Of a DNA stretch of 64,000 bases, positions 26,080 through 48,000 are shown one piece after another. Under the pieces are notes generated by a model. The model made no database searches. It saw nothing but the letters and a program-made list of their open reading frames with translations, and was not told the origin of the DNA. The stretch spans positions 236,716,001 through 236,780,000 of the forward strand of contig OZ024743.1 in NCBI GenBank assembly GCA_964016885.1, given 5' to 3'. The number at the start of each line of letters is the position of its first letter. The first letter of the stretch is position 1. Source of the stretch: Eledone cirrhosa. Its lineage: Eukaryota. The translations under genes were made by a program, and so were the position numbers.

Positions 26080-26185
26080 TAATTTAGACACCAATGTTCA
26101 GGGAGAGGAAAGCCAATTAATTCTGATCTAGTATTGACTGATACTTTATTTTATCGACTCAGGAAATATGAAAGGTAAAGTTGAC
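26080..26185 (-). mobile_element. degenerate SINE copy
   Basis: TACTTTATTTTATCGACTC...ATGAAAGGTAAAGTTGAC matches the 22051-22182 copy. Confidence 0.65.
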
Positions 26186-26189
26186 ATAG

Positions 26190-26583
26190 AGTCACTCCAG
26201 GTAGAGCCACTACTTCTCCAAATTGGGAGATTACAGCTCTGATACTATGGACATGTGGTTAGAATATCTCAGGAAAGAATCACTGGACAGATTTTACGGG
26301 CAAAACCAACTGACAGGAGACCCAGGGGTAGACCCAGTGCAAGATGGTTGGATAACATACATGGGCTTGGCTGGTCTCGCTTGGGGGTCCAGCTGGATCA
26401 GTTGGAGATGGTTGTTTCTGACAGGACCCACTGGAGGGAGTGTTTAAGGACTCTGTCCCCACGACTCTCTCAAGAAGAAGAAGAAGAAGAAGAAGAAGAA
26501 GGGGGAGGAGGAGGAGGGGGGGGGAAGAAGAAGAAGAAGAAGAAGAAGAAGAAGAAGAAGAAGAAGAAGAAGAAGAAGAAGAA
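26190..26583 (+). mobile_element. 3' end of RTE-clade LINE with (GAA)n tail
   Basis: Translates as VEPLLLQIGRLQL*YYGHVVRISQERITGQILRAKPTDRRPRGRPSARWLDNI...DRTHWRECL, matching the RTE C-terminal GHV.R...RPRGRP..RW.D motif, and ends in (GAA)n. Confidence 0.8.
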
Positions 26584-26796
26584 ATACCGCAAAGTATTTT
26601 GTCTGATGTTCTAATACTTCTGCCAATTAACCAAGCGGTGTTTCATAATCTTGGCATACCATCCAGTGTATATAAATTCCAGCTTTGACATGACTGTGAA
26701 TTCTTTAGTTTTAGTCAAAGACAAGGAAGCTAAAGACAATGTGGTTAAATGCCCCTCCTCCCACCACTACCACCACTACCTCCATCACATATTCTA
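26584..26796 (-). mobile_element. degenerate R4/Dong-like (RLE-type) LINE fragment, downstream part: zinc knuckle and RH region
   Basis: Minus-strand translation with frameshifts: RICDGG..FNHIVFSFLV/LTKT/IHSHVKAGIYIHWMVCQDYETP...EHQ, resembling CRxC..ETIxHIVSGCxxLAxxEYxxRHxxVxxYIHWxxC...WYEH. Confidence 0.7.
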
Positions 26797-26990
26797 GCCG
26801 GCGGATTGGATTATTTTCCGCCGTTTACACGGGGCCTCCCCGAAGGAAGCTAGTTGGCGGCGTGTTGTCGTCGCGTCGACCAAGCTACTCCACGCTGCCG
26901 TTCGGGCGTCGTCATCGGCGGCTGGATTCCCCTGCAGCCAAACGGGTCGGAGGCGGCCAACTGGGCACGCCTTAAAGGCGGAACACGCAT

Positions 26991-27062
26991 CGGAGGCGGA
27001 GGGCGGAGCGGAGGCGGAGGGCGGAGCGGAGGCGGAGGGCGGAGCGGAGGCGGAGGGCGGGC
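26991..27062. repeat. 18-bp G-rich repeat (GGAGGCGGAGGGCGGAGC) x~4 in IGS unit 1
   Basis: Direct; absent from unit 2. Confidence 0.9.
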
Positions 27063-27228
27063 GTTAACGTGCAGGCGGGGCGGACGAGTTCTAGACGGCA
27101 TGTCGTTCGAGGCGGAGACATCCAACATAGCATAGGGTAAGCCGGCACGTACCCGTCTTGAAAACGGAATATTCACGACTCTCAACGGGTAGCATCCGGA
27201 ATCGTTTTCTTCGAGCTCGCCCGATCAA

Positions 27229-27262
27229 GCTTACCCTATATAATAGACAGGACCCCCTGGCC
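27229..27262 (-). promoter_or_regulatory. putative Pol I spacer promoter (+1 ~27237)
   Basis: Minus strand GGCCAGGGGGTCCTGTCTATTATATAGGGTAA, identical to the motif ahead of the 5'ETS; TATATAGGG-type initiator. Confidence 0.65.
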
Positions 27263-27846
27263 AGGCTGCAAAACCCGTACTCGTTGGTATTCCCCGCAGG
27301 CGTTTCGCAACCCTACGGGTCGGCGGCGGTTCCGCGTCGCCGGCGAGTTGCGAACTTTCTCGCGATCGAAGCGGGAAGACGAATAAAGGAACGTTTGCCG
27401 GGTTCGAGGCGGAAGACGGAAGGCGTCGTGTCGCGTCGGGGAACTTCGCCTCGCGTCACGTATACACGCCTCTTGCCGTCTGTCTTTCCCGGCAGCTACT
27501 CGTAAAAGTACGGGTCGGCGCCGGAACCGCCTAGCCGGCGGATTGGATTTCTTTCTGCCGTCTACACGGGGCCTCCCCGAAGGAAGCTAGCTGGCGGCGT
27601 GTTGTCGTCGCGTCGACCAAGCTACAACAGGCCGCCGTCCGGGCGTTGTCATCGGCTGGATTCCCCTGCAGCCACACGGCTCAGAGGCGGCCATCTGGGC
27701 ACGCCTTAACAACGGAACACGCATCGGAGGCGGAGACATCCGACATCACATAGGGTAAGCCGGCACGTACCCGTCTTGAAAACGGAATATTCACGACTCT
27801 CAATGGGTAGCACCCGGAATCGTTTTCTTCGAGCTCGTCCGATCAA

Positions 27847-27880
27847 GCTTACCCTATATAATAGACAGGACCCCCTGGCC
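27847..27880 (-). promoter_or_regulatory. putative Pol I spacer promoter (+1 ~27855)
   Basis: Same motif as 27229-27262 and 44104-44135. Confidence 0.65.
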
Positions 27881-28185
27881 GAGTAAGCATCGCCATAGCC
27901 GATCGTATTCCCCGCTACCAACTCGCAACCCTACGGGTCGGCGGCGGATCCGCCTCGACGGCGGATTGATTACTTTCTAGCGATCGAAGCGGGAAGGCGT
28001 GGACGAATAAAGGAACGTTTGCCGGGTTCTAGGCGGAAGACGGAAGGCGTGTGTCGCGTCGCGTAACTTCGCCTCGCGTAGCCTATACACGCCGTCATGC
28101 CGTCTGTCTTTCCCGGCAGCTACTCGTAAAAGTACGGGTCGGCGGCGGAACCGCCTAGACGGCGGAATGGATTTCTTTCCGCCGT

Positions 28186-28545
28186 CTACACGTAAAACAT
28201 AACTTGGAAGACGGACGACGGATGGGCGGCTTGTATCACACACAGACACACACATACACCACACAGAGGCCGGCTACACGTAAAACATAACTTGGAAGAC
28301 GGACGACGGATGGGCGGCTTGTATCACACACAGACACACACACACACCACACAGAGGCCGGCTACACGTAAAACATAACTTGGAAGACGGACGACGGATG
28401 GGCGGCGACGACGTGTAACACACAGACACACACACACACACAGACCGCCTACACGTAAAACATAACTTGGAAGACGGACGACGGATGGGCGGCGACTACG
28501 TGTAACACACAGAGATACGCAAAACTAATCAACTCGGAAGACGGA
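28186..28545. repeat. ~88-bp IGS subrepeat x4 downstream of 28S
   Basis: CTACACGTAAAACATAACTTGGAAGACGGACGACGGATGGGCGGC at 28186, 28274, 28362 and 28449. Confidence 0.93.
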
Positions 28546-28924
28546 TCGGCGGCACTCGAACCAAGGCTGTGTCGCATTCACCGTGGACTCTCTTTTTTCG
28601 ATGCTAATCGACTTTGAGGGTCGTTGGCGCAACCTGGCAAACGAGCGGCGAGCGAGATCGTCGTAAAAGTTGGCGCGCGGAAAGTGGTTGGTGGTTGGTG
28701 GTTTGCAGTAGCAGCGGCGGAACTGTTAAAAGAATGGGCTAAGGCCCGCACGGACGGACGGAGCGGACTTGTTTGTATGTCGTCGTCGTTGTTGCTACGC
28801 TAACCCGTCGAAAGAAAGCCGCGTCATTGCTCCAACCCGGTAGCTGCTGCTGCTATCTCTCGTTCGTTCGTTCCTTAGCCGCTTTCGAATTTCTTCTTTT
28901 TTTGTTCTTTTGCCTGCCGCCTCG

Positions 28925-29477
28925 GTGGGCGGATCGTGTCGTTCGTGAGAAGAGACTCAATAGATCGCAGTGTGGTAGCTGCTCTACTAAGCACGTCACT
29001 CCGAACGGCAAGTCGAGTCGTATACAAGCGATCCTTTTCGTCTCGATCTCTTTCGACAAATCGAACGGACGACGACGACGACGAATCGTCGTAATCGTCA
29101 CAGAATGGCAATTCCGCTGACGCTGCCGCCGACGACGACGCGCACCCCGAAAAGGGAAGCGACTTCGCCGAACGGACGGCAATCGCCAAACTAAGGCATG
29201 CGCCTTAAGAAGGTTGAGACGCTTTCGAAAAACAACTCGGGTCCGGCTACGGTTCCGGCTTAGAGGCGTTCAGCCGTTATCGCTCAGAGGCAGCCTGGCA
29301 CTACCGCTCTATCGAGCGAGCGCGCAAACCGTTGCTCTGATCCCGCGGTTCCTCTCGTACTGGACGGGATAGCCGTAGCCGAGTTGACGTTGCCGGCGGC
29401 GACGCCGACCGCAGCCGCCTTCGAGAAGGTGGCTGTAGCCGCCACCACCGCCGCCTACACGCAATGCATCGGTAGGA

Positions 29478-29514
<37 letters not shown>

Positions 29515-29566
29515 AACGTTCCTTGTTAGTGGGTGAACAATCCAACGCTTTGCTAATTCTGCTTCG

Positions 29567-29604
<38 letters not shown>

Positions 29605-29627
29605 GACGTCGCTGCGAACGCTTAGCC

Positions 29628-29670
<43 letters not shown>

Positions 29671-30208
29671 CGGCGGACGCATAGCTCGCCGCTATTCGGA
29701 AAGGATCGATGGGCCACGCTTTCGCGGTCCGTATTCGTACTGAAAATCGAGATCGAGTGAGCTTTTGCCCGTTTGCTCAACGTGTGGTTTCCGTCCACGC
29801 TGAGCTCGCCTTGGGACACCTGCGTTACCCTTTGACAGACGTACCGCCCCAGTCAAACTCCCCGACCGACACTGTTCTCGACTAAGGGTCGCGCATCGGC
29901 TGCGTCGGCGCACAACGTGTGCGCGCGCGACATGCACCGCACGCTTCGCACCAGATAAATGAACCACCGCTCGGCGACGGCCCCGTCCCTTCTCAATCGA
30001 GTGAGCAAAGAAACTACGGAAGTGGCGGTTTTTCATCGACGCAAACGCGCACGGTACCCGACAGACGGCGAACGCCGCCGCAAAGCCGCCGCAAAGCCGC
30101 CGCAAAGCCGCCGCAAAGCCGCAAGCGACCCGCAAACGACGCTGCCGCCTGCCGAGAGACGCAAGATTGCTCCCGCCTATGCTACGCCTACCGTGTGCCC
30201 TCACAAAA

Positions 30209-30248
<40 letters not shown>

Positions 30249-30364
30249 CGATCCGTCCAAGCCCGTTCCCTTGCTGTGGTTTCGCTAGACAGTAGATAGG
30301 GACAGTGGGAATCTCGTTGATCCGTTCATGCGCGTCACTAATTAGATGACGAAGCATTTGGCTA
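28925..30364 (-). rRNA. 28S rRNA, 3' part (downstream of R2 insertion)
   Basis: Sense strand starts TAGCCAAATGCTTCGTCATCTAATTAG; contains CAGAAAAGTTACCACAGGGATAACTGGCTTG, GGTTTAGACCGTCGTGAGACAGGTTAG and the sarcin-ricin loop AGTACGAGAGGAAC; terminal CTGCGATCTATTGA near 28960. The 3' end is approximate. Confidence 0.95.
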
Positions 30365-31024
30365 TTTTAGCTAGCATTTAACAAGTGCTTTTTTCAAAGC
30401 ACGAGACGCTTTTCCCTATTTTTATATGTGGGTGGTCCCACGGCCAACGCCATTTAGCTCAATATGGCATGAATGGTGTGCCGATGTCAATCCGGTAGGT
30501 ACCGACCGCAGTTCAAACCGCTCACCGGCCGTGGCAGAATTATCATGTCACGCCGACCGCAATTCGATCCGCCATCTGTCAATCCAGTATTTAAAACCCA
30601 ATAAACTAAAATAAGGTGGTCGTGCAGCGCTCGACCACCCCAAAAAAAAGAAAAAAAAATGAGACCGCTCCACGAGACCCAAGTTTCCCACTCTCCTATT
30701 CAACATTCAATTAATAAGTTTTAATAACCAACAAAATAACAAAAATAAAAACACAGACGCGTAACCCTGCAACGGGGGGTAAAGGGCGTGCTAACGTGAA
30801 CCCACCACGAACGCCCGGACTCGCGGAGCCGGCGGAGTCGTCTTACTTCTCCTTCACTCGGATTTTCTATCCGACCGCTTACCGGGTTAGTTTAGTTAAT
30901 CGGAATTAGGAAGAGTGGACCCGGGCTCTAACGCGCGCGCAAAAAAAAAGAAAAAAAAAATCCGAGGCAATCATCCCCCGAACCCAGTATGGGCCCATAC
31001 AAGAGGGGAGCAGACGACAATCAG

Positions 31025-34000
31025 TCAAAGCGAGAGGGAGGGCTCCCAGCCGACCCTCCAGCCAAGGCGCATGGATTCGTCCGCTATCAGTTGGCACAGC
31101 TGGTCATGCCGGGCCAGTCGCTTTCTCTTGAGAAGAGGGCACTGGCCACTGATATGGGCGATTGTCTCCGCGGCCGTTCCACAACGTCGGCAGGTCTTAT
31201 CACCGCGACCGCCTCTCGCCAAGCATTCCCGGGTGGGAAACGTATTAGTTCGCAATTTGAGACAACTCAAAAAGGTCCCCTCAGAAACCACACCCGGGCG
31301 GAGCAACCAATCGTTGCCGATTCGGTCACCCCGGAACGACCCCGCACACGCCCCCTGGACGGGCTGGGAGGCCCAGGCCTCGGCGGCCTGCCGTCCAAGA
31401 TCGGGCGCGTACGTGGACGTGCCCGGCGGGACCGGAGGCAGCCCATAACGTAACGCTATCTCGCTGTTCCGCGTAGCGAGGCCCGCCGATTCCGCCATGA
31501 GACGAACCGCGTCATAACGAGAGACTAGCAAACAGAGATTCTTACGAATCACGATGGATGGGATTAACTTCGCCAAATGGCAAAGACCCAATCCACCGTC
31601 CCGCTTGCTACAGTACAAGAAGGAAACCGAGGTCGACACATGCAGATGCATAATCCTACGTGTTCCCGCGCGAATCGCCGCGTCTAGCTCCTCGAGTTTA
31701 ATCCGGCTAGGCATCACCTGCACCAGACTGTAAAACAATCTAGGCAGGTAATACTGTTGTAGCAGATGGAATTTCTGCTGGGGCTTCAGTGGAGCACAGC
31801 AAATCTTATCGACACACTGTGACACCCGCTCCACCGAAACTTTCAACTCGAGGTTTGACCACGGGCCGACACTAACACCTAAGTAAGAGCATTTCTCTGC
31901 AGGGTCGATTCTCAAGAGCTGAATACCATCAATCTCAGGGGCGGAGTCCGTGTTGACCAAGAAAGACTTCCCCCACGCTTTAATCGAGAAGAAGGCGCAT
32001 TTGGAGACATTCACTGCTAGCCCCATCTCCCGGTAGAAAGACACACACCTGTCAACTAGGCGCTGCATCTCCACCGAAGAGCCGGACACCAGAGCATTGT
32101 CATCCGCGTACGCCAAACTCGACAAACCCAACTCTCCAATTCATAAGCCACAGTCGTTGGATAAAGCGTCCAACAGCGGATCAGTGGCAATGTTGAAGAG
32201 AAGGGGCGAGAGGGCATCTCCTTGCCGTACTCCTCGCCTGATCGAGATGGCTCTGCTCGTTTCCTCTCCGACCGAGAATTTTGTGACACAGCCCTCGTAC
32301 AGACCTCTCACGACTTCGACCATGTGTTCGTGAAATCCAAGTCTTCTCATGCCCGCAAACACGAGTGAGTGCGGGACAGTATCGAAGGCCTTGGCAAGGT
32401 CCAAGAAGGCCACGTTCAACTGCCGAATCCTCGATCGAGCTAGCCCACCCCTAGTGCGAGCGATTAGTTGCCGCAGTAAAAATAAATTCTCACTGCAGCC
32501 GTCCGCATTAATGAACCCTCGTTGAGCCGGGTTCAGGGGTGTTACCTGAAGCATTCTTTTAGAGAGAATCCTGGTGTATAGACGATACACGGCAGAGCAT
32601 ATCGTCAGGGGTCTCCAATTTGAAATGTCGATCGGACCGTCCATCTTTTTGCGAATGAGGACTGACCTTCCTTGCTTTTCAAGATATCGGGAACTCTCCC
32701 GGCTAGCAGCAAACAGTTAAATAGGTTCACTAGAGTTGCAGGGTCGATTGCGCGTACCTGTTGGGGCGTGATTCCGTCGGGCCTCGGAGCCGAATGCGGA
32801 TCCATACACCTACGCGCACCCACAACTTCGGACACGGTGAACGGCCGCAAAAGCGACTCATTATTCACCACCTCCGTTGCGGGATACGCGCTAAGATCCA
32901 CATCTGGTCCAGGGACGGAGAATCTCTCTTCGTAAGCAGACGCGATGTCCGCCATCGGGACAGGACACACCCCCTGCATCTCTTCGCCTAAAATTACTGT
33001 AAGGAGCTTCTTCCTGTCTCGGTCATACAAAAACTGGTAGCGAGCGTAGAGCAGACTCTTTTCACTCTTTCTACCAGTTTTCTTATAGGGCCTTTTAAAT
33101 CTACTCTTTTTCCGTGTATTTCGCGCTCTACCACGCCCTCTGCTCGAGCGCACATTGTTCACCCATTCGTCGACAAACCCGGCGAACGCATCCCAGCTCT
33201 CATCCGTGATCTCATCACAAAATGTGACAAGACACTCGGCAAAAGCGGCGGACCATCGAGAGCGCCCAGGCTCCACCGCCTCGCCAAACAAGTTCCTCCA
33301 ATCGTTATCAGAGGCAACCGGGATGGACGCTCCACTCGGCTGGCTAGGCGGCCGTCTCTCTAACGACCCTGCAGAACGGGTAGGGGACTGTTCACAGTGT
33401 TTTTTTCTATTCCTTAGATCGCTCCTCTTCGAACTAATCTGTTTCACAGTCTTTCCGGGCAGGAAAGGAGCGATCCCAAGATTGACACGACGACACCCCG
33501 CCTTAAGAAGCTCGTCCTCCTTTTCGAGAAGGATCGAAACCTCCTGCTCGGACCAACAACCACGACCAACCCGGGTGCGGGGCTGCCCAGCCCTCTCGCG
33601 AGAGGCTGCAGCAGCACGAGAGGCACGCTTCTTTCCGATCTCCTCCGCGTGTTTCGCGATCCTGCGGCGATTGGCAACCACTGGATGACGATGCCTCTCG
33701 TGCTGTGATCTTCCTGCGACCGTACGGAAGGCACGGTCGCACTCTCCGTACCAGTGGATCAAGTCCGAGACGGCGGGAATATCGTCCCATCTCCTGCCCG
33801 TACATCGGCCCACGTGCACCCGGAACGAATGCAGATGACAACTTTCCCTACCGCATTTGCTACACCTAAAAACTGCCTTTCGCTCATGACAGCGAAGCAA
33901 ATGCTCCGCCCAACCAGACGGGCCCGAGAAATGACGCGAACAGCACGAACAAAACAAAACTACGCTCTTACAAGGAATCTCGAGACAGTCCTCCCCCGCG

Positions 34001-34353
34001 ACCGTTGGCCCAACCTCACATACAAATTCCACGGGGTCGCGCGCGAGCCACGACGGCAGTTGCTTGCCTTTCAAGACCAAAGCGTGGGTTGGGTACTCCA
34101 GAGTAAATTTATCGGGTGTATCCCTACGGACTAGTATAGTCGGTATCTGAATCCTCCGGTAGGTCAAATCCAGTGAGCCGGCGCTCTTACGAGGAACATG
34201 GCCCGGCTCTTTGCCAGTCCTCGGAGACAGTTGCCAATCGCAGAGGGCCATTACAGAACGCTGCGACAGGCCGAAGGGACCTATCCCATTCCCTCCGGCC
34301 ACTGGTTTTTCGGCCCCCAGCTGCCGTTTGGAATTCAAAATATGTGTCATCAT
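31025..34353 (-). pseudogene. disrupted R2 ORF (ZF-ZF-ZF-Myb-RT-CCHC; endonuclease missing)
   Basis: CSCC..HLLRCH, CSKC..HVGRC, YGEC..HERHRH, WSEQE...KTVKQISSKR, APRPDG, NWRPLTI, QRGF, LDLAKAFDTV, GVRQGDALSPLLFN, YADD, YLG, CRRC..ETIAHISGQC, RHD. Frameshift ~32678, in-frame TGA at 32141-32143, ends at GWEPSLSL*. Confidence 0.93.
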
Positions 34354-34519
34354 AATTTAGGCACCAATTAGTTCGTCTTAATGTGGCCGACTAACCGAGA
34401 ATGGTAAAACCTGCCGAGTCAACCCTGACCACCGCAAAAAAAAAAAGGAAAAGCGGGGCGGAGCTGCCTCTCTCGTACAGCTCAAAACCACGGACTTAAG
34501 CTCTCTTCCCACGTCAAGG

Positions 34520-34603
34520 GGTACCTGTAGAGCGCCGCGTCTCGGGCGGCGTCCGGTGCGCTCTCGGCGGCCCTGGAAAATCCGGGTCCGTAACGATTCG
34601 CAG
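34520..34603 (+). other. inverted 84-bp copy of 28S segment 35683-35766 inside the R2 5' junction
   Basis: Reverse complement of 35683-35766 with one mismatch. Confidence 0.95.
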
Positions 34604-34664
34604 AGGTCAACCCTGACCACCGCAAAAAAAAAAAAGGAAAAGAGGGGCGGAAAAAAGGAAAAGC

Positions 34665-34707
34665 GTTACTCCCGCCGTTTACCCGCGCTTGGTTGAATTT
34701 CTTCACT

Positions 34708-34739
<32 letters not shown>

Positions 34740-36723
34740 CGCGTCTATGCGGCTCGGCCGGCTACGCGATGCTCTGTTTTAATTAGACAGTCGGATTCCC
34801 CCGGTCCGTACCAGTTCCGAGTTGACCGTTCGCCGCCGGCCGAACGCCTGCCGCGCGTCTCGGCAACCGCCCTCCTCCTCGCGAAGAAGAAAGAAAGAAG
34901 CTACCGACGCGCCAACGAGCCCGAAGCCGTGTCGCTCCACGGTGTCCCGGGCGTGGAGCCGTGTTGTTCGCGCCCACTACGCATCGAACGTCGCAAAAAG
35001 CGACCGAAACGCCGCTCGCCAACGCCAAGCTAGCGCCTCTCCAAGCCCCCCGTTTCCGACCGACAAAAACGAAGAAAACGAAGAAAAAAAGACGACGACG
35101 ACGCGCGAGCCGCCGGCACTGCGACGAACAGTAAGGAAAGAAAAAAAAACGAAAGAACAAAACAAAAGCGAGCAGAAAACGAAAAAAACAAACCGCCCTT
35201 ACGGGCGACAAGCCTCTCCTGTCTGCTACGCCTTCATCCCTCCTCCGCGGTAATCTTTCAACAACCCCGTCCGCTCCCGCGCGACCAACCCGCAGCCGCC
35301 GCCGCCTTCTTCCTCTCTCTCTCCTCGCCGCCAACCGAAAGAAAGGCAAGGAAAAACGAAACGAACGCAACGAAACGGGCGCAAACCGGCCACCCGACCG
35401 ACGCTCGAACGTCGAGTCCGACGCCAACGCTACAGTCCCGTACCGGTTCACCGCTTCGCGTACAGACGTGCCGCGCGACCGATCCCGAGTTTTTGGAAAA
35501 AAACAAGACGGCCGACAGGCCGACACACACACGGCCCGACCGACCCGGTCCTCGGAGACAATCCTTCTTCCGAAGGTACGGATCCATTTTGCCGACTTCC
35601 CTTACCTACATTGGCGCTATCGACGAGAGGCTGTACACCTTGGAGACCTGCTGCGGATGGTGGGTACGGACCGACTCGAGAGCTGCGAATCGTTACGGAC
35701 CCGGATTTTCCAGGGCCGCCGAGAGCGCACCGGACGCCGCCTGAGACGCGGCGCTCTACAGGTACCATATCCGTATCTCCGGACGAGCCGATTCCACGGA
35801 CGCGGTTCTTTACGAAGAAGAGAGAACTCTTCCCGGGGCTCCCGGCAACGTCTCCGGGCTCGCTTGCGTTGCCGCTGCTTCGCCCGACCGCCGGCTTCGA
35901 TGACGCGACGACGCGTTAAATTCCACCGACGGACGAGCACTCTCCGAGTTCGGGTTCGGGAATATTAACCCGATTCCCTTTCGATGCAAGGCCGGCCGTA
36001 ACAAAAACAGAGAAGAAAATAAAAAACGAATTTTTCAAAATCATTCTCTTTCTCGACAACGGATCCGGCGCCTTTAGTACAAGCTTTCGCCCGCTTCTTA
36101 GGACCGACTGACCCGTGCTCGACCGCCGTTGGCACGGAACCCTTCTCCACTTCGGTCTTCGAAGGTCTCGTTCGAATATTTTCTACTACCACCGAGATCT
36201 GCACCCGCGGTCGGCTTCACACGGGCTCACGCCCGCGGCTTCCGTGCACGCCGCGGCGCCTTCCTACTCGACCAGGCATCGAAGAAAGTTACGTCGTGTC
36301 ACCTTTTTTCGCCTATCGCCTGGCCGGTCCGGCATCGGTCGCTCGCTCCAGCGCCATCCATTTTCGGGGCCGGTCGATTCGGCAGGTAAGTTGTTACACA
36401 CTCCTGAGCGGATTCCGACTTCCGTGGCCACCGTCCTGCTGTCTATATCGACCGACACCCTTTCGGGGATCTAATGGGCGAAGCGTAGGGCACCTTAGCC
36501 GGACGTTCGGTTCATCCCACATCACCAGTTCTGCTTACCAAAAGTGGCCCACTTGGCACCGTGCATTCGTCGCCGAGACGGCGGCCGCCTCCGATCGGGA
36601 GAGAGAGCGGCCCGTTTCGCTCGTTCCGAGTTCGAGAGTAGATCGAGGCCGTCAACGTCCCCGGGGCCTCCAGTCGTTCGCTTTACCGGACGGAATTGCG
36701 TGTCGTTCTGTCTGCTGCTGGCG

Positions 36724-36766
<43 letters not shown>

Positions 36767-38272
36767 CGGCTCGATTGGTCTTTCGCCCCTACACCCGGTT
36801 CCGACGATCGATTTGCACGTCAGAGGCGCTTCAGACTTCCACCAGAGTTTCCTCTGGCTTCGTCCCGACCGGGCGTGGATCGCCATCTTTCGGGTCCCCG
36901 GCCGCCTGCTACACCTGAGTCGGAGCGCGCCGCGCCGGCGGCCCGAAAGCCGCCACGCGACGCGCACACCCGACCCGGGAACGATGCTTCGAAACGCCTA
37001 CGACGGCGCGGAAAAAAAGAAGAAAAAAAACAACAGCGACACCACCCGAAGGCCATGCCGCATGCCGTCAATTCAACCAGCCCCTAACGCCGCCGTCGAC
37101 GACGCGTCACGTTCTCGCTTTCACTTCGCCGTCGGAGTTCGTTAAATTCGATTTCTTTCGCTCCAACGACTCGCAACCGACTGGGACTCCTCGATCCGTG
37201 TTTCAAGACGGGTCGGGTAGGTTGCCGATGCTCGTCGCAGACCTGCAGCAGCGGACGGCTCGCGATCCTCGTCCGCCCAGCGACCCGCTCCCTCCTGCTC
37301 CGCAAAGAGAGCAAAAGAGAAAAAGCAAACGGGGCGAGCGAACGAGGCGGCCGCTTTCTCGAAAGCCGATCAGACATTTTAAGGATATTAAAAAACCAAC
37401 CTAAGCATATACGAACGGCGCTGCGGCTGATAAAGGAACACGCGCGTTTGTCCCGTCCCCGCCTGTTAGCCGTGCCTGGGACGATGAATAAAAACCACTG
37501 CCGAGCGACGGGCCCGGTCGAGAGAAGCGCTGTTTTCGGAAACCCGCTTCGAAAGCGAACCGGGATGGTTCGTTTTCTAGGCGGGACGCCGCTCTGCGAC
37601 CTGCGGACACCGCGCGCCATCCAGCCTGACGGGAACGGGTCGCGACGACGGATCGAAGGGGAAATGCGTCCGATGCCGGCACCCCGCGAATCGTAACGCC
37701 GGCGAGGCGATCGGCGGTCGACTCGTCGAAACGAGATACCGCCGCCGACGCGATCGCCGACGACAACGGCGCCTTAAAACAGCAGCGGACTGAGTCCCCT
37801 CGCGATCGCGGTGAACGATCCTACCCGTTTAACCCCTGGGCGGTTTCACGGTCTCTTGAACTCTCTCTCCAAAGTTCTTTTCAACTTTCCCTCGCGGTAC
37901 TTGTCGGCTATCGGACTCGTTCCGGTATTTAGCCTTGGATGGAGCTTACCACCCGCTTTGGGCTGCGTTCCCAAGCAGCCCGACTCTCGAGCCGAAGAAA
38001 GAGACACTGTCGATCGCCGCTGGCTCCGAATGGGCCTGGCACCCGCTTTGGGCAGCCCCGATCGAGGGGACTCCGAATCTAGCCGGGCGAAACGAACGAC
38101 CGTGTACGACCCTTGTGCCACAGCTCTCGACGACCTGCTTGCGGACGACGAGATTCAGCGTTGGGCTCCTCCCAGTTCACTCGCCGTTACTAAGGGAATC
38201 CCGGTTGGTTTCTTTTCCTCCGCTTAGCGATATGCTTAAGTTCGGCGGGTAGTCGCGTCCGAGTCGAGGGCA
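34665..38272 (-). rRNA. 28S rRNA, 5' part
   Basis: ACCCGCCGAACTTAAGCATATC, GGAAAAGAAACCAAC, CCCGTCTTGAAACACGGA, GTTTCCCTCAGGATAGC, TTCTGCCCAGTGCTCTGAATGTC, ending GGCGGGAGTAAC. Confidence 0.96.
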
Positions 38273-38856
38273 GCTATTCGCATACGCCGAATACGCTGAA
38301 TACGAAGAACGAGGACGGTAAGAAGGCGGCGTCGATAAAGAAGAGACTGGCGATATAGAGTGGGCGCCAATGCGGAATGTGGAAAAGACAAGAGAAATGG
38401 GAAAAAAGAGGCGGCATCGAAATCGTTTCTCGTCGGCCGACACGAACGCTTTGTTTTTGGCGACTCGCAGAGCGAACGCCGGCCGACGAACAACGACCGC
38501 GCCTGTGTTACTGCGTTTCTTTTTACCCTTCTCGTCTTCCCTTCTTCTAAATCTTTCTCTTTCCGTGCGACGATCTCCGAAGCGAACGACGAGAAATAAA
38601 GAAAAATAACGACGAAAAGTGTTAGTTCTTATTTCAATACGGGAGACGGAGCGTTCCGCGAGCGACGACTCTCGCTTCTTCTGCGACTCCCGACTTCCCG
38701 CTGTTACCATGACGCAAAAGAGAAGAGAAAAAGAAAAAAACTGCGCTTCGCTAAGGCGGCAGCGGCAGCGCAAAAGGCGGATGTTTCTCTCTTTCTCTCT
38801 CACTCTCGTGAGCGGGCGGCGCATGGCGAAACAGCAGACATCGCGATTGTATCGTG
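38273..38856 (-). other. ITS2
   Basis: Position between 5.8S and 28S. Confidence 0.85.
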
Positions 38857-39018
38857 ACCGCCTCTCGACCGGACGGGGCCCCGGGACGATGGAATCCCGG
38901 GGCCGCAATGTGCGTTCGAGGTGTCGATGTTCACTGAGTCCTGCAATTCGCATCAGTTCACGCGGATAGCCGCGCTCTTCATCGACGGACGAGCCGAGTG
39001 ATCCCCCGTCCAGGGTTT
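38857..39018 (-). rRNA. 5.8S rRNA
   Basis: GGATCACTCGGCTCGTCCGTCGATGAAGAGCGCGGCTA...GAATTGCAGGAC...GAACATCGACACCTCGAACGCACATTGCGGCCCCGGG. Confidence 0.96.
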
Positions 39019-39523
39019 TGTCATTTTTAAACGAAAACGAAAACGAAAAAAAAAAACACGGTAAAAAGAACGCGAAAGCATAGAAACCAACGGTAGACGA
39101 TGGCGGAGGCGGCGACAGCGACGATATTCACGGGACGTTTTCACGTTCGTTGCGCGCTGCGGTCTCTGCTGGCTGCCTTGCTGCTTCCGCGGGCGAGGTG
39201 AAGAAAATAAAAAGCGCACGTCGAAAAAATACGTTCTCTCGGATACGAAATCGAACAATGCGCGATGTTATCGGCCGAGCGCCGTGCTGGCGCCGGCAAA
39301 AGAAAAATAACGGTAGGAGCGGTTTAGGCGGCGGTAGACGCGCAGTAAGCGATATTGGCGGCGATTTCGCAAACGGCGCTCGCTCCATTTAACGGGTTAC
39401 GCCGTCCGCTAGGCGTCTCCAGATGACGAACCCGACCGTTGTTGTCGTGATCACCGAAGAACGAAAATATAAAAAGGCGGCTTTCGTTGGCGGCGTCGGC
39501 AATAAACGATATTGGATACGCGG
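39019..39523 (-). other. ITS1
   Basis: Position between 18S and 5.8S. Confidence 0.85.
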
Positions 39524-39581
<58 letters not shown>

Positions 39582-39724
39582 AGCGATCGGGTTCGGTCGT
39601 CTTCTCCGGGCCATCAGAGAGCGCACCGACGACGGCAACGAACCGACCTGACGGCCGAATCGAAACGCCGCCGCACGGCCTGCGAACTCGTCGGCCAGAT
39701 CCGAGGACCTCACCGGACCGTTCG

Positions 39725-39767
<43 letters not shown>

Positions 39768-40476
39768 GATCGACGCGGGCTGATGACCCGCGCCTACCGG
39801 GAATTCCTCGTTCACGGGGTTGGTTCCAGGCCCCGATCCCTATCACGGGAGGTGGTTCAGAGGTTTCCCGACCCTCTCGGGCCGGGGGAGTGGCACCCGC
39901 TGTTACCTCCAGTGTAGCGCGCGTGCGGCCCCGGACATCTAAGGGCATCACAGACCTGTTATCGCTCCGCCTCGTGCGGCTTTCTGCCGCCCGTCTCTCT
40001 AAGAAGCGCTGCGTTCGCCAACCGACTGGCTCGGACGCGACGACGTGCCGACGCCGGGGCTGTTCGCGCCGGTCCCCCCCTCCCGAGCCCGAAAAACCGA
40101 CCGCCGCCTCCGCCAGCGCTGCCTTCATTCCTCCATTCCGCAAGCGAACTCGCGAAAGAAGAAGACGACGACGACGCGACGACGACGGCAACGGCAACGG
40201 AAGCCCGAGCTCGAAGAAAAAGGGAAAAAAACCGAACGCAGGACAGCTTACCGACGACGGCTTCGGCGCCGCCACGCTACCGGAAAAGCACTAATCGACG
40301 CGCTAGTTAGCAGGCCGGAGTCTCGTTCGTTATGGGAATCAACCAGACGGATCGCTCCACCAACTAAGAACGGCCATGCACCACCACCCACCGAATCGAG
40401 AAAGAGCTATCGATCTGTCAATCCTACCGGTGTCCGGACCGGGTGAGTTTTCCCGTGTTGAGTCAAATTAAGCCGC

Positions 40477-40522
<46 letters not shown>

Positions 40523-42384
40523 TGTGTTGCAACCATGCTCCCCCCGGAACCGACTATGGTTTCCCGCGCAGGCTCCCCGCCGGGTCATCGAAGCGAACGC
40601 CGGCGGAGCGCCAGTCGGCATCGTTTACGGTCGGAACTACGACGGTATCTGATCGTCTTCGAACCTCCGACTTTCGCTCTTGATCGAGGAAAACGTGCTT
40701 GCCACACGCCGTCGCTGCAGTGCGTCTTGCGACGATCCAAGAATTTCACCTCTAACGTCGCAATACGAGTGGCCCCGATCGCTCCCTTCGATCATTGCCT
40801 CGTCGTGAACGGAGACCGACGGATGACGCGCGGACGAGGCCATTTTCCATCATTCCATGCTTTTCGTATGCAAGCCGGTGCGGCTCGCTCTGAGCACTCT
40901 AATTTTTTCATAGTGAACGTACCGGCCGCCTCGGACACTCGGTAAAGAGCACCCTCGGAGGAACCGTGCGGATCGGCGGCGAAACGGAACGACGCGCGAC
41001 GACAAAACGGCGGCCGCAGGAAAGCGACGCGCCGAGACGACACGACGACGAAACCGGTCACGCCGTCGTATCCAACCCTGGCGACGAACCTCTCCTTTCG
41101 AAAAGAAAAAGGCAAGCGCGCAGAGAGAGAAAAACAAAACCGCGAGGTGAACGCGCGACCGCGGCGAGGTGACGGCACGACGACGTAAGAACCTCTGAAA
41201 AGCCAAGCGAAACGAACTCCAAGCCCTGACCGGAGCGCGGCGACGAAAACGAGAGGCGAACGGCAAACGCCCGCGATAAAGCAAAGCGCCGTCGTCGCAT
41301 CGTCCCCGATCGCGCAAAGGAAAATAGGCAAGAAGAAAGCAAGAAGCGAGGTAAGAAGGTAAAAACGCGACGTCCGCACCGTGACGCCGAGCGGCGATGC
41401 ACGCAGAGCTCTGCGGCCCGACCGCGCACGCACCGGCGAATAGGGCCGGGAGTGCGAACGGACGACCGAAGTCGACGCGCGGCGCGCGAACGACAACGGC
41501 GCCGTCGCCCCGAACGCGCTGACGACGCAGCGCGCTTTCGAGACCCGAATTCTGACTACGAGCTTTTCAAACGCAACAATTTTAATATACGCTACCGGAG
41601 CTGGAATTACCGCGGCTGCTGGCACCAGACTTGCCCTCCGGTCGATCCTCGTTAACGGATTTGAAGTGTACTCATTCCGACCGCGGGGCCTCGACAGAGT
41701 CCCGCGTCGTTATTTTTCGTCACTACCTCCCCGTGCCGGGAGTGGGTAATTTGCGCGCCTGCTGCCTTCGTTGGATGTGGTAGCCGTTTCGCATGCTCCC
41801 TCTCCGGAATCGAACCCTGATTCCCCGTTACCCGTTGCCACCACGGTCGGCACTTACCGGGCCGTCGACAGTTGATAGGGCGGACTCGCGGGGGACCCGT
41901 CGCGCGAAGGCCAGAAGCGATTCTAAGCCCGTGCGATCGTACTGACAGTTATCCAGAGTCACCAAAGTCGAATTGATGCGCGACGCCGCGCAACCGCACG
42001 CAGCGAACTGCGAACGGCGCTGACGGCATCTGACGCGTCGTCGGTCTCAGTCTAATATTTGCGCCGCGACCAATGCGAAGGCCAACCGTGTCGACGCGAT
42101 CTGTTGGGACCGCGTGGGAAGACGGAACGACGACAGCGACGAACGCTGAGCGCGTTTGTAACCCGACTCCCGGGTGCGACCTGCGATCGCGGCCTCAGTT
42201 GCATGTATTAGCTCTAGAATTGCCACAGTTATCCACTCTCCTCACGGTGAGGAATACGGTCCCGAGGATTAGGTCCGGTTCCTGAGCCATTCGCGGTTTC
42301 ACCATTCGTTTACGGCATGAACTTACACTTGCATGGCTTAAGCTTTGAGACAAGCATATGACTACTGGCAGGATCAACCAGGTA
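39524..42384 (-). rRNA. 18S rRNA (2861 nt, expanded)
   Basis: Starts TACCTGGTTGATCCTGCCAGT and ends GTAGGTGAACCTGCGGAAGGATCATTA; GTGCCAGCAGCCGCGGTAA and TTGTACACACCGCCCGTC are present. Confidence 0.98.
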
Positions 42385-44110
42385 TCTTCCGCACGAAATA
42401 CAAAACGACGACCGAGAACAGAAGCGCATGGAGGCGGCAGCAGCGAATTTCGTCTCGTCTCGTTGTAGGCGGAATGAGAAAACGTAACAAAAAAAAAAAA
42501 AACGGAAATGTCGGCAACCGGTCCACGAGCCGGTGGAGGTAAGAAACGAAGAGAAAAGAAGAAGGACGCAGCGCGGCGCGTTTGGCGGCATTTACTCATC
42601 ATCTCTCCCAGATCATCTCCTCTCCCAGCGACGTCGTCGACAAAACGGGCGTATACGAAATCAATCGCCCGCCGACTGCCGGCCAATCGTTTAGTCTTCT
42701 TCCTCCTCCTCGGCGGCGGCGGCGGCGATGAAGGAAAAGAAAAGAAACAAACGAAAACGAGCTCGCAAGACGGTTTACAATCCGATGGCATCGCACGAAG
42801 CCGCTTTCGGAAGCGTTTCCCTGGGCGTAAGTGCGAGCTGAGGCGTGATGCCGGGGCGGCAGCAGCATGCGGCGTCGAAGAAGAGGAGAGAGACAAGTAG
42901 GCGGCTGCGGCGCCCTCCGCTTTCGATTCAACAGCTGCTGTCGCCGTTACTGCGACGGAAAAAGAAATCGGTTCGACATGGCTGCGGAATGCGGTCAACG
43001 GAAGAGAGTTAGGAAGACGACGACGCGAAAAGCGCCGCTGCGTAACCTAACGGCTAGGTATGCCGGGGAAAACTTGAACGACGCCGACCCGATAAAGGCA
43101 GCGGCGCAAGCAGGGACACCCGGACTTGATGCCAGTGTCCCTTCGGGAGGGACGACGCCGCTCTCTTTCATAGATATCGCGTCGCCGTTGGCAAAACGAG
43201 GGTAGCTACGGCTATACCCAAGCCCGCCGCGGCAGTGGCGATGCAACGCGAGGTCAGCGGCATGACCTGACCGGGTCCACGACGAAAAGCCGAACCCTTC
43301 GTCGCAGCAAGGAAGAGTGACGCGCGTCGTCGCCGTCGTAGATCGTCGTCAAACGCATTGCAGGGCATTTAGGCGTTGCTCCTACATTAAAATGACGGCT
43401 ATTACGACGGACGCGTACCTACTGCTGTGACGGAAAGGCGGTTCGGAAGGCGGATAATCGTCGAGGCCGAGGGTCGGCGAGCGAACGAAAAAAAAAAGAG
43501 GCGAGGAGGAAGCGAGGGCGTTCGGCGAAAAGGTTTCAGATTTTTACGCCGACCGGGCGGGAAGGCGTTCGTTTTTTGGCGTCAACCGAGGAGTAATTTG
43601 CGTTGCTCCAGCGGTAACGAACGTCTTCTATCGTGGGTCCGGTCGGGCGATGGCGGCGGTCTGGAAAGGCAATTCTTTTGCCGCGACGGAAGCGCAATCG
43701 AAAGGCGGATCACGAAATGCGGCTAGCCGTCGAAAAGGGAAAAAAAAAAAGAATAGGCGAGGAGAAGGCGGCGCGAGGAGGTTCGGCGAAAAAGGCTTTC
43801 AGACTTTTACGTCGCCCGGACGGGAAGGCGCTCGTTGTTGGCGTCAACCTAGGAGTAATTTGCGTTGCTCCAGCGGTAACGAACGTCTTCTATCGTGGGT
43901 CCGGTCGGGCGGCGGCGGCGGCGGTCTGTAAAGGCAATAATTCGTCGATGGCGGCGGGCACGGGCTGTAACGTGAGGGCGGGTCGTGGACGAGGACGACA
44001 TCGCATATAGGGTATCCGAACACGCCTAACCCGTAACCTACGCAGTAAACCGAAAGCTGCAACGGCTAGCACCCTTCCGTTCACTAAGCTCGTCCGACCG
44101 AGGTTACCCT
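42385..44110 (-). other. 5' external transcribed spacer
   Basis: Lies between the putative Pol I start and 18S; contains a ~155-bp duplication. Confidence 0.7.
43520..43938. repeat. ~155-bp direct repeat x2 in 5'ETS (43520-43672, 43781-43938)
   Basis: Shared GGAGTAATTTGCGTTGCTCCAGCGGTAACGAACGTCTTCTATCGTGGGTCCGGTCGGGCG. Confidence 0.92.
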
Positions 44111-44135
44111 ATATAATAGACAGGACCCCCTGGCC
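44104..44135 (-). promoter_or_regulatory. putative rDNA gene promoter / Pol I start (+1 ~44110)
   Basis: TATTATATAGGGTAA initiator; homology with the IGS repeats stops exactly downstream of this motif. Confidence 0.7.
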
Positions 44136-44501
44136 GAGCTGCATCCTCCGCAATCGTTGATAATCCCCCAAGGGCGATCCGCCGGCCACGGGTCGGCTGC
44201 GGAACCGCCTAGACGGCGGGTTGGCTTCGGTCCCGCTGTCGATGCGGGACCTAGAATGGCTAGAGAGATAGAAGGAGGCGTGTCGTCGGCGAAGCTACAC
44301 CACTTCGCCGTTCGGGCGTCGTCGTCGGCTGGATTCCCCTGCAGCCACCACGGGTCGGACGCGGCCGACTCGGCACGCATCAACGGCGGAACGTTTACCG
44401 GGTACGAGGCGGAAGGCGGAAGGCGTCGTGTCGCGTGTACACGCCGTCTTGCCGCATCTCTTTCCCGGCAGCTACTCGCAAACGTACGGGTCGGCGGCGG
44501 A

Positions 44502-45070
44502 TTGAGTATTATTTCATAAAATACTTTTGGTGGTTTCCTTTGTGGAAGCTGGGAACTTGTGCTACAATTAAGAATCCTTCTCGTCATACACTTCAGTTAT
44601 ACACTTTTCAGCCAATGTTTTGAAGTTTTCCAGTCAACTTCCTCCTTATTCATTCTTTTCAGTTATTGCCAAACGTTTCATCATGACATTCTGGTAATCT
44701 GTTTTTAGTTTAGATTTTAGCTTCATCGCCACTTCTGTCGTTCACCCACATTTTTTCATTTTCTTACTATCTGTCAATTCAGCATCTGTTTTGTATTGGT
44801 TTATTTGAAGATGAAACCAATTTCTTATTTTATTCATGCTTCGTAGCCATTTGTATCAACACTCTATTATTCTTTACTAGGTATTTTTGTAGTTCTACAG
44901 TGGTTATTTTATATTAGGTTTCTAGTTGCATAAGGCACCTGCCTCACTATATTCGTAATAAATATAATGTTTTTACATCTGATGTTGGGTGGTTTAATCT
45001 AAATCTATTAATTTTATTTTTTGTTTAGTCTAAGATAAGTGTCAAGTTAAGAATATTAGAAATGTAGCTT
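44502..45070 (-). mobile_element. degenerate R4/Dong-like LINE fragment, upstream part (post-RT region)
   Basis: Minus-strand translation: NRFRLNHPTSDVKTLYLLRI**GRCLMQLET*YKITTVELQKYL...LKSKLKTDYQNVMMKR...EVDWKTSKHWLKSV*LKCMT/EGFLIVAQVPSFHKGNHQKYFMK, resembling HP..D..RLY..R..GGRGL and WL....LK.ETEG...AAQDQ motifs. Confidence 0.75.
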
Positions 45071-48000
45071 ATTATAGACAGCTACAGTATTAACAATTCT
45101 GTCTAAGTCTAAAGTCTGTCTTATTATAGACAGCTACAGTATTGATTAGTCTGTCTAAGTCTAAAGTCTGTCTTATTATAGACAGCTACAGTATTGATTA
45201 GTCTGTCTAAGTCTAAAGTCTGTCTTGTTATAGACAGCTACAGTATTGACAATTCTCTCTAAGTCTAAAGTCTGTCTTGTTATAGACAGTTACAGTATTG
45301 ATTAGTCTGTCTAAGTCTAAAGTCTGTCTTATTATAGACAGCTACAGTATTGACAATTCTGTCTAAGTCTAAAGTCTGTCTTGTTATAGACAGCTACAGT
45401 ATTGATTAATCTGTCTAAGTCTAAAGTCTGTCTTGTTATAGACAGCTACAGTATTGATTAGTCTGTCTAAGTCTAAAGTCTGTCTTGTTATAGACAGCTA
45501 CAGTATTGATTAGTCTGTCTAAGTCTAAAGTCTGTCTTATAGACAGCTACAGTATTGACAATTCTGTCTAAATCTAAAGTCTGTCTTGAAATAGACAGCT
45601 ACAGTATTGATTAGTTAGTCTAAATCTAAAGTCTGTCTTGTTATAGACAGCTACAGTATTTATTAGTCTGTCTAAGTTTAAAGTCTTTCTTATTATAGAC
45701 AGCTACAGTATTGATTAGTCAGTCTAAGTCTAAAGTCTGTCTTATTATAGGCAGCTACAGTATTGACAATTGTGTCTAAGTCTAAAGTCTGTCTTGTTAT
45801 AGACAGCTACAGTATTGATTAATCTGTCTAAGTCTAAAGTCTGTCTTGTTATAGACAGCTACAGTATTGATTAGTCTGTCTAAGTCTAAAGTCTGTCTTG
45901 TTATAGACAGTTACAGTATTGATTAGTCTGTCTAAGTCTAAAGTCTGTCTTATTATAGACAGCTACAGTATTGACAATTCTGTCTAAGTCTAAAGTCTGT
46001 CTTATTATAGACAGCTACAGTACTGATTAGTCTGTCTAAGTCTAAAGTCTGTCTTGTTATAGACAGCTACAGTACTGATTAGTCTGTCTAAGTCTAAAGT
46101 ATGTCTTGTTATAGACAGCTACAGCATTGATTAGTCTGTCTAAGTCTAAAGTCTGTCTTATTATAGACAGCTACAGTATTGATTAGTCTGTCTAAGTCTA
46201 AAGTCTGTCTTATTATAGACAGTGACAGTACTGATTAGTCCGTCTAAGTCTAAAGTCTGTCTTATTATAGACAGCTACAGTATTGACAATTCTGTCTAAG
46301 TCTAAAGTCTGTCTTATTATAGACAGCTACAGTACTGATTAGTCTGTCTAAGTCTAAAGTCTGTCTTGTTATAGACAGCTACAGTACTGATTAGTCTGTC
46401 TAAGTCTAAAGTATGTCTTGTTATAGACAGCTACAGCATTGATTAGTCTGTCTAAGTCTAAAGTGTGTCTTATTATAGACAGCTACAGTATTGATTAGTC
46501 TGTCTAAGTCTAAAGTCTGTCTTATTATAGACAGTGACAGTACTGATTAGTCCGTCTAAGTCTAAAGTCTGTCTTATTATAGACAGCTACAGTATTGACA
46601 ATTCTGTCTAAGTCTAAAGTCTGTCTTGTTACAGACAGCTACAGTATAGATTAGTCTGTCTAAGTCTAAAGTCTGTCTTGTTATAGACAGCTACAGTATT
46701 GATTAGTCTGTCTAAGTTTAAAGTCTTCCTTATTATAGACAGCTACAGTACTGATTAGTCTGTCTAAGTCTAAAGTCTGTCTTATTATAGACAGCTACAG
46801 TATTGATTAGTCTGTTTAAGTCTAAAGTCTGCCTTAATATAGACAGCTACAGTACTGATTAGTCTGTCTAATTCTAAAGTATGTCTTGTTATAGACAGCT
46901 ACAGTATTGATTAGTCTGTCTAAGTCTAAAGTCTGTCTTATTATAGACAGCTACAGTATTGATTAGTCAGTCTAAGTCTAAAGTCTGTCTTATTATAGAG
47001 GGCTACAGTATTGACAATTCTGTCTAAGTCTAAAGTCTGTCTTGTTATAGACAGCCACAGTATTGATTAGTCTGTCTAAGTCTAAAGTCTGTCTTATTAT
47101 AGACAGCTACAGTATTGATTAGTCAGTCTAAGTCTAAAGTCTGTCTTATTATAGACAGCTACAGTATTGACAATTCTGTCTAAGTCTAAAGTTAGTGTTA
47201 TTATAGACAGCTACATTATTGATTAGTCTGTCTAAGTCTAAAGTATGTCTTGTTATAGACAGTTACAGTATTGATTAGTCTGTCTAAGTCTAAAGTCTGT
47301 CTTATTAGAGACCGCTACAGTATTGACAATAATGTCTAAGTCTAAAGTTTGTCTTATTATAGACAGCTACAGTACTGATTAGTCTGTCTAAGTCTAAAGT
47401 CTGTCTTGTTATAGACAAATACAGTATTGATTAGTCTGTCTAAGTCTAAAGTATTGGCTTATTATAGACAGCTACAGTATTGACAATTCTGTCTAAGTCT
47501 AAAGTCTATATTATTATAGACAGCTACAGTACTAATTAGTCTGTCTAATTCTAAAGTCTGTCTTGTTATAGACAGCTACAGTACTGATTAGTCTGTCTAA
47601 GTCTAAAGTCTGTCTTATTATAGACAGCTATAGTATTGACAATTCTGTCTAAGTCTAAAGCCTGTCTTGTTATAGACAGCTACAGTATTGATTAGTCTGT
47701 CTAAGTCTAAAGTCTGTCTTGTTATAGACAGCTACAGTATTGATTAGTCTGTCTAAGTCTAAAGTCTGTCTTGTAGACAGTTACAGTATTGATTAGTCTG
47801 TCTAAGTCTAAAGTCTGTCTTGTTATAGACAGTTACAGTATTGATTAGTCTGTCTAAGTCAAAAGTCTGTCTTGTAGACAGTAACAGTATTGATTAGTCT
47901 GTCTAAGTCTAAAGTCTGTCTTGTTATAGACAGCTACAGTATTGATTAGTCTGTCGAAGTCTAAAGTCTGTCTTGTTATAGACAGCTACAGTATTGATTA

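Follow-up and report, generated by a model that had tools for sequence, protein, structure and literature searches.

A solitary ribosomal DNA repeat in a fossil LINE of Eledone cirrhosa, with ends that are neighbours in the rDNA array, probably derives from a reinserted circle

Results

Gene content of the inserted repeat

A 64,000-nucleotide stretch of the Eledone cirrhosa genome (assembly GCA_964016885.1, contig OZ024743.1, labelled C4 below, forward-strand positions 236,716,001 to 236,780,000; hereafter the window, with positions counted from its first base) contains a single ribosomal DNA (rDNA) repeat. The repeat occupies positions 26794-44501 on the minus strand (17,708 nt) and is embedded in the fossil of a long interspersed nuclear element (LINE) of apparent restriction-like endonuclease (RLE) type. 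The rDNA-derived stretch is GC-rich and bounded by AT-rich flanks, beyond which lie two large satellite arrays. The rRNA genes, positioned by Rfam matches and all on the minus strand, comprise an 18S gene expanded to 2.86 kb (39524-42384), a 5.8S gene (38859-39017) and a 28S gene interrupted by an R2 retrotransposon (28929-38272). Such expansion, together with the repeat content, would fit a coleoid cephalopod. Minus-strand spacer subrepeats of about 620 bp fill positions 26794-28192, and a repeat scan found 88-bp tandem repeats downstream of 28S, at 28181-28493. Each spacer subrepeat has one promoter- or start-site-like motif. The motif at 44104-44126 (minus strand), with an inferred start near 44109, is a putative start site that we take to resemble the TATATA-G start sites of RNA polymerase I (Pol I); two more motifs lie at 27231-27253 and 27849-27871. 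The spacer is short, with three motifs in total versus 9-47 in array-like regions.

The R2 element is a decayed copy of 4,300 nt at the canonical 28S site (30365-34664, minus strand). It retains reverse transcriptase (RT), CCHC and two N-terminal zinc-finger-like motifs, and its best PDB matches are R2 proteins (E 3.6e-53). Its open reading frame is disrupted by a frameshift and stops, 16 nt of the upstream 28S are missing, and the 5' junction contains an inverted 84-nt copy of 28S positions 35683-35766 (34520-34603, plus strand, 98.8% identity). Because R2 splits the 28S gene, the window unit is likely a pseudogene, and a working 28S rRNA from it is improbable.

A preliminary description of this DNA, made from its sequence, had reported an entire 17.7-kb unit running from the promoter to the intergenic spacer. 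One full repeat is indeed present, but 4,300 nt of it are R2, so that the rRNA gene is not intact, and the spacer is short. Its view of the unit as an orphan stands: the 18S-5.8S-28S unit is a single copy with private substitutions and has non-rDNA on both sides throughout the 64-kb window, as is characteristic of an orphon. The description was incomplete in that it missed the R2 in 28S, a 5-nt closure of the two ends and the occurrence of at least 13 such events across the genome.

The host LINE and its empty site

Only about 0.7 kb of the host LINE remains, covering linker and knuckle. Upstream of the insertion, the minus-strand remnant at 44502-45067 extends from the RT thumb/linker to just before the CCHC knuckle; it shows 70-78% identity to paralogs and is ended by the 52-bp satellite. 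Downstream, the remainder of the knuckle lies at 26637-26793 on the same strand, with 68-74% identity in the longer matches. The 3.0-Gb assembly has one full-identity match to each flank, besides many paralogs at 68-78%. Searching with the right flank led to nine paralog loci, seven of which (L002, L003, L006-L010) also match the left flank collinearly; the left flank led to L013 and L018, which match the right flank collinearly as well. The flanks are adjacent in all seven paralogous copies measured pairwise, with spacings of -11 to +13 nt (an 11-nt overlap to a 13-nt gap), a spread that reflects the age of the LINE copies. Multiple alignment with the paralogs gives a target loss of about 11-13 nt, which removes the codon for the first Cys in the CxxC knuckle. 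Relative to the intact homologous protein P0076, the right flank stops at residue 489 and the left match begins at 505. The insertion lacks a target duplication, with 2 nt abutting.

These data agree with the preliminary description in most respects. The flank peptides that it quoted (EGFLIVAQ..., RICDG...) are present in the window, and its proposal that the flanks had been contiguous is borne out by their adjacency in the seven measured copies and by the collinearity of the flanks in the paralog loci. Few nucleotides were lost, there is no clear target-site duplication (TSD), and its claim of a DNA-level insertion is upheld as well. The left LINE flank does not reach 26584 as described, since the remnant spans 26637-26793 and positions 26577-26636 come from another repeat family.

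Assignment of the host to the RLE-type LINEs is supported by full-length homologs, because all eight that were scanned have RT, a CX2CX7-8HX4C knuckle and PD-(D/E) endonuclease motifs. N-terminal zinc fingers are absent from the same eight. Such fingers are not known from the R4/Dong clade, and membership of the host in this clade is plausible; no named R4/Dong protein was among the matches of the protein searches.

The ends of the window unit are neighbours in the array

In 122 of 123 anchor pairs in other rDNA units, the last base of the window unit precedes its first base with 5 nt between the two. Independent high-depth contigs from public data continue past 44501 in the same way. The insert therefore corresponds to one array period minus 5 nt, and in the tandem array its 3' end lies next to its 5' start. 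Such a 5-nt closure is the footprint that would be expected of an opened circle.

The termini of the unit also recall a Helitron-like element with defined ends. Helitrons have a TC 5' end and a hairpin followed by CTRR at the 3' end, and the window unit starts with TC and finishes with a hairpin and CTAG. Yet both ends occur together in none of the 12 other dispersed events described below, all of which start elsewhere; the base following CTAG is A, and target bases were lost. As the ends differ among the 13 events, a Helitron-like origin was rejected as highly improbable.

Age, decay and reality of the locus

Over 1,690 columns, the window 28S carries 11 private substitutions, versus 0-2 in array-like units and up to 35 in the oldest aligned orphan; these differing loads indicate events of different ages. 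Divergence of the window unit from array-like units is 1.0-1.9%, and 1.7% from an uninserted array-like unit. The unit is outside concerted evolution. The R2 copy carries 13 private changes in 948 columns, evenly distributed over codon positions (the R2 and 28S counts come from alignments with different row numbers), which weakly suggests that the element may already have been decaying when the unit departed from the array. Divergence of the host LINE from its paralogs is 26-30%; the LINE is far older than the insert, and all dispersed events are much younger than this LINE.

Mis-assembly of an array unit into unique sequence has to be considered at any such locus, rDNA being hard to assemble. 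In two of three contig runs the right junction is covered, over 44438-45067, by contigs with zero mismatches, and the third run covers 30 nt on the rDNA side; a run of restriction-site-associated DNA has almost no depth there. This contig support is limited to the right junction. The absence of mismatches, the private substitutions of the unit and the collinearity of the flanks within a LINE family, unlike those of a chimera, nevertheless make an assembly artefact very hard to credit. Contig depth is about 3,100-4,400 versus 5-14, which is not a copy number but hints that hundreds of array copies are missing from the assembly.

Dispersed rDNA units across the genome

The genome was searched with the 5' part of 18S and the 3' end of 28S, and the best 40 candidates were scored, so that the counts are lower bounds; copies turned up on many contigs. 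From around the matches, 26 regions were retrieved, copies with identical junctions were merged, and long collinear rDNA with both ends visible was counted as an event. At least 13 dispersed events, window included, were identified. Nine of the 13 close within about 300 nt, having been opened at differing points in the spacer, the 5' external transcribed spacer (ETS), 18S or 28S. The 5-nt gap of the window is followed by gaps of 9 nt at C4:352.06 Mb, 20 nt at C2:7.58 Mb (with its opening at the 3' end of 28S), 49 nt at C3:366.05 Mb (in promoter-proximal spacer), 68 nt at C2:166.89 Mb (in the 5'ETS), 135-171 nt at C1:80.95 Mb, 242-278 nt at C4:153.43 Mb, about 280-290 nt at C6:69.59 Mb (mid-18S) and 289-302 nt at C2:114.07 Mb. 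The remaining events have gaps of about 810 nt (C25), 1120-1520 nt (C3:2.86 Mb) and about 2030 nt (C10), or one end inside R2 (C2:170.23 Mb). Four events have once-per-unit anchors at both ends (20, 49, 68 and about 285 nt). For uniformly placed ends, the probability that at least four of 13 close within 300 nt is 2e-5 to 1.5e-4, with the threshold set post hoc. A sign test on the gaps (11 of 11 short of a period) was dismissed, because subrepeat gaps are positive by construction. A single site-specific cut, for example by the R2 endonuclease, was rejected, as the opening points vary and none is at the R2 site.

Several independent events have near-identical start points, at unit positions 193/196, 281, 328/329 and 1426/1448. 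Nine of the 13 starts lie in spacer upstream of a promoter-like motif, where hot spots of breakage are possible, although the statistics are weak. At C25, a monomer and a dimer share common 3-kb flanks at 99% identity; unit number can therefore change after landing, and a multimeric circle is a possible source of the window unit.

The R2 site is altered in all 13 dispersed events, 12 of which contain R2-derived sequence and one an 8-nt scar. This regularity would suit an RNA route, in which a long Pol I read-through transcript is reverse-transcribed, for example by the R2 protein, and inserted. So would two 411-nt 18S fragments elsewhere, L078 (C6:98.23 Mb) and L079 (C3:291.16 Mb), which run from the mature 5' end to the same stop and look like RNA-derived copies. 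The window unit, however, begins about 390 nt upstream of the inferred start and retains 2 kb of downstream spacer, while units elsewhere have their start in mid-18S and run on through the spacer in permuted order. With neither a TSD nor a tail, derivation from RNA is exceedingly unlikely.

In the C12 array, three of the four units seen with intact site context carry a 1.2-kb R2 derivative. An internally deleted derivative of 1.15-1.37 kb occupies the R2 site of most assembled rDNA units, including three units of the C12 array (C12:25.04-25.18 Mb, C25, C4:352 Mb, C2:7.58 Mb, C3 and C6; L026-L058, L071-L072, L096). Divergence among its copies reaches 25%, which marks it as an old non-autonomous family, and we take it to resemble the SIDEs of Drosophila. 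A second R2 lineage, found in L043 (C2:166.887-166.892 Mb) and L088, shows about 65% identity to the window R2 over the RT region and has 4,965 nt with an uninterrupted frame of 1,214 codons; the unit around it is almost identical in sequence to the array. An R2 of this lineage is nested with the short derivative at C2:251 Mb.

Target sites of the dispersed events

Empty sites were sought for four of the 12 other events by means of paralogous repeats. In three of them the flanks lie in young repeats, and the empty site was found in seven of seven paralogs each. Target loss at these three sites amounts to 12-13, 109-121 and about 240-250 nt, and microhomology at three reconstructed sites is 2-5 nt or imperfect. 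No abutting duplication longer than 2 nt was found in any of the 13 events. Homology to the array is absent from 25 of the 26 flanks, with one weak match. These junctions fit end-joining rather than homologous integration or target-primed insertion.

The same data bear on homology-driven ectopic recombination through satellites or through an rDNA remnant at the target. The window unit does lie between two large satellite arrays, and this route has been proposed for Lepidoptera (PMC10257491; here and below, statements from cited papers refer to the part of each text that was available). Both junctions, however, lie in LINE sequence devoid of rDNA homology. The LINE resumes on the far side of the insert, and target sequence was lost and not duplicated. 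Four reconstructed empty sites already contradict such exchange, and we consider it very improbable.

Other features of the window and of rDNA-derived sequences

A 46-bp satellite array extends over 577-21021, with a strand flip at about 4765, and is followed by a C-rich 6/29/47-bp repeat at 22299-23503. A 52-bp satellite array fills 45068-64000. Adjoining the host LINE remnant, at 26174-26583, is the plus-strand 3' end of another LINE with a GAA-rich tail, presumably RTE-like.

Elsewhere in the genome, the orphan unit at C4:352.06-352.16 Mb and its flanks are triplicated as a tandem segmental repeat of 39-40 kb. Adjacent inverted pairs of one 230-290 nt piece of 18S occur at C1748, C11:37.84 Mb, C4:288.69 Mb and C1:133.55 Mb, and are possibly a fold-back or miniature inverted-repeat transposable element (MITE)-like repeat made from 18S. 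A degenerate and much shortened rDNA-derived unit at C28:124.72-124.95 Mb and C18:6.72 Mb (L082, L083, L084) forms at least seven repeats with a period of 30-40 kb and contains an amplified 170-bp ETS piece.

Discussion

Origin of the window unit

The geometry of its ends argues that the window unit probably originated as an extrachromosomal rDNA circle that was cut open at a single point and taken up by end-joining at a break in the chromosome. A circle of one unit, or of several later collapsed to one, would have been looped out when adjacent units of the array recombined. One double-strand break would have linearised it, falling within the spacer about 390 nt upstream of where transcription is inferred to start, with 5 nt trimmed, and end-joining with 0-3 nt of microhomology would have sealed the linear rDNA into a germ-line break. 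The inserted unit would then have left concerted evolution and decayed, the LINE being a passive landing site only.

The main rival is a linear fragment of the array, broken out or copied by template switching and captured at a break, with its register set by break clustering in spacer subrepeats. We regard it as unlikely. It can draw on the nine of 13 starts in spacer, on three event pairs that start 1-22 nt apart (193/196, 328/329, 1426/1448) and on the four events without closure. It leaves unexplained the three units opened in 18S, 5'ETS and 28S, which close within 20-290 nt of a length of 14-26 kb, as well as two closures, of 5 and 9 nt, that fall in differing registers of the spacer.

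Several observations weigh against the origin from a circle. No circle was seen, and its former presence is read from the geometry of the ends. Because the window unit ends in spacer subrepeats, its closure taken by itself is merely in register, and the chance of such in-register closure is about 1.4% for a 700-nt repeat and 5% for a 200-nt variant. Four of the 13 events do not close within 300 nt, and with nine of 13 starts in spacer, breaks may cluster there for other reasons. A further 12 regions containing rDNA could not be scored. The unscored material takes in the C12 array (two regions, with an assembly gap), C2:251 Mb (a gap), four copies that are old and rearranged, three degenerate tandem copies (C28, C18) and four fragments. 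Short-read contigs support the right junction only and come from one sample, possibly the source of the assembly. The empty allele was not seen: each flank occurs once at 100% in the assembly, and no empty-site contig was among those listed. For one event, C4t, a site-spanning paralog was found in none of five loci, the search having returned another repeat; the flanks of C4t translate into consecutive RT-like segments of a family that we take to be Penelope.

A broader proposal is that circle reintegration in the germ line of this animal is genome-wide and repeated, that circles preferentially open in the spacer directly upstream of promoters, whether real ones or spacer ones, and that R2-marked units are selectively ejected. 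The sequence data make this combination conceivable, and we advance it as tentative and rather doubtful. Selective ejection of R2-hit units is a possibility only, because the C12 array units carry an R2 derivative too and orphans can gain R2 after landing. If the proposal is true, loop-out of circles would be one way for the array to rid itself of units hit by R2, some of them landing elsewhere. Landed units would occasionally re-expand, as in the monomer and dimer with the same junctions, and would provide a sequence-level record of the seeding of new rDNA loci.

Comparison with known systems

The window R2 resembles known R2 non-long-terminal-repeat retrotransposons in its canonical 28S site, its RT and CCHC motifs and its top structural-database matches to R2 proteins, and differs in being decayed, with a rearranged 5' junction. 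R2 has already been reported in molluscs (PMC5035012, PMC13188248). The host shares with RLE-type LINEs of the Dong/R4 group the single RT-CCHC-RLE layout of its full-length homologs. The knuckle spacing of RLE-type LINEs is as in these homologs (PMC5678591), and Dong-R4 elements are abundant in octopus genomes (PMC13282606, PMC8967140). The LINE differs here in being a 0.7-kb fossil target, which reverses the usual case of a LINE sitting in rDNA.

The window unit is like an orphon in that a tandem gene has a copy away from its array. Orphons are reportedly the subject of papers by Childs in 1981 and by Guimond and Moss in 1999. They are dispersed members of tandem gene families, for which integration of extrachromosomal circular DNA has been suggested as a source (PMC3225859). 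The present case differs in its whole repeat periods, resolved junctions, empty sites and end closure, seen in at least nine independent events. In the literature searched, which mostly excluded subscription papers and supplements and covered older orphon papers by title only, there was no report of self-closing dispersed rDNA units, and no literature on octopus rDNA loci was found.

Circle-mediated insertion has been read from cyclic permutation in human segmental duplications (PMC7450558), at cattle KIT (PMC12722694) and from an AB to BA change of order (bioRxiv 10.64898/2026.09.03.749254). As in the available accounts of those cases, the order here is permuted relative to the donor, and the junctions show microhomology and small indels and no long homology. 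The donor in this case is a tandem rDNA array, in which a circle junction is seamless; the sole footprint is that the ends are neighbours in the repeat.

The appearance of rDNA arrays at new chromosomal sites is an old question. In the available text of the literature found, circle reintegration, known for other DNA, is for rDNA a standard hypothesis, without junction evidence. It has been proposed that one or more units loop out and insert at a break, with no experimental evidence of reintegration at new sites as of 2013 (PMC3622299). In 2023, circles and ectopic recombination were described as not separable (PMC10257491), and where reinsertion into the array itself was weighed, unequal exchange was favoured (PMC10666004). 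The Eledone genome offers a natural series of events of varied ages in which ends and empty sites are resolved. It also offers a simple test that is usable on any long-read assembly, namely whether a dispersed unit closes, end to end, in the array. Caution is called for as well: most 18S and 28S copies in such assemblies are orphans, decaying and hit by R2, and not working genes. The dispersed units match the proposal of loop-out and insertion at a break, as far as it is set out in the available text of PMC3622299. They differ in that they are decaying singletons or short repeats, and at most candidates for active new nucleolus organizer regions.

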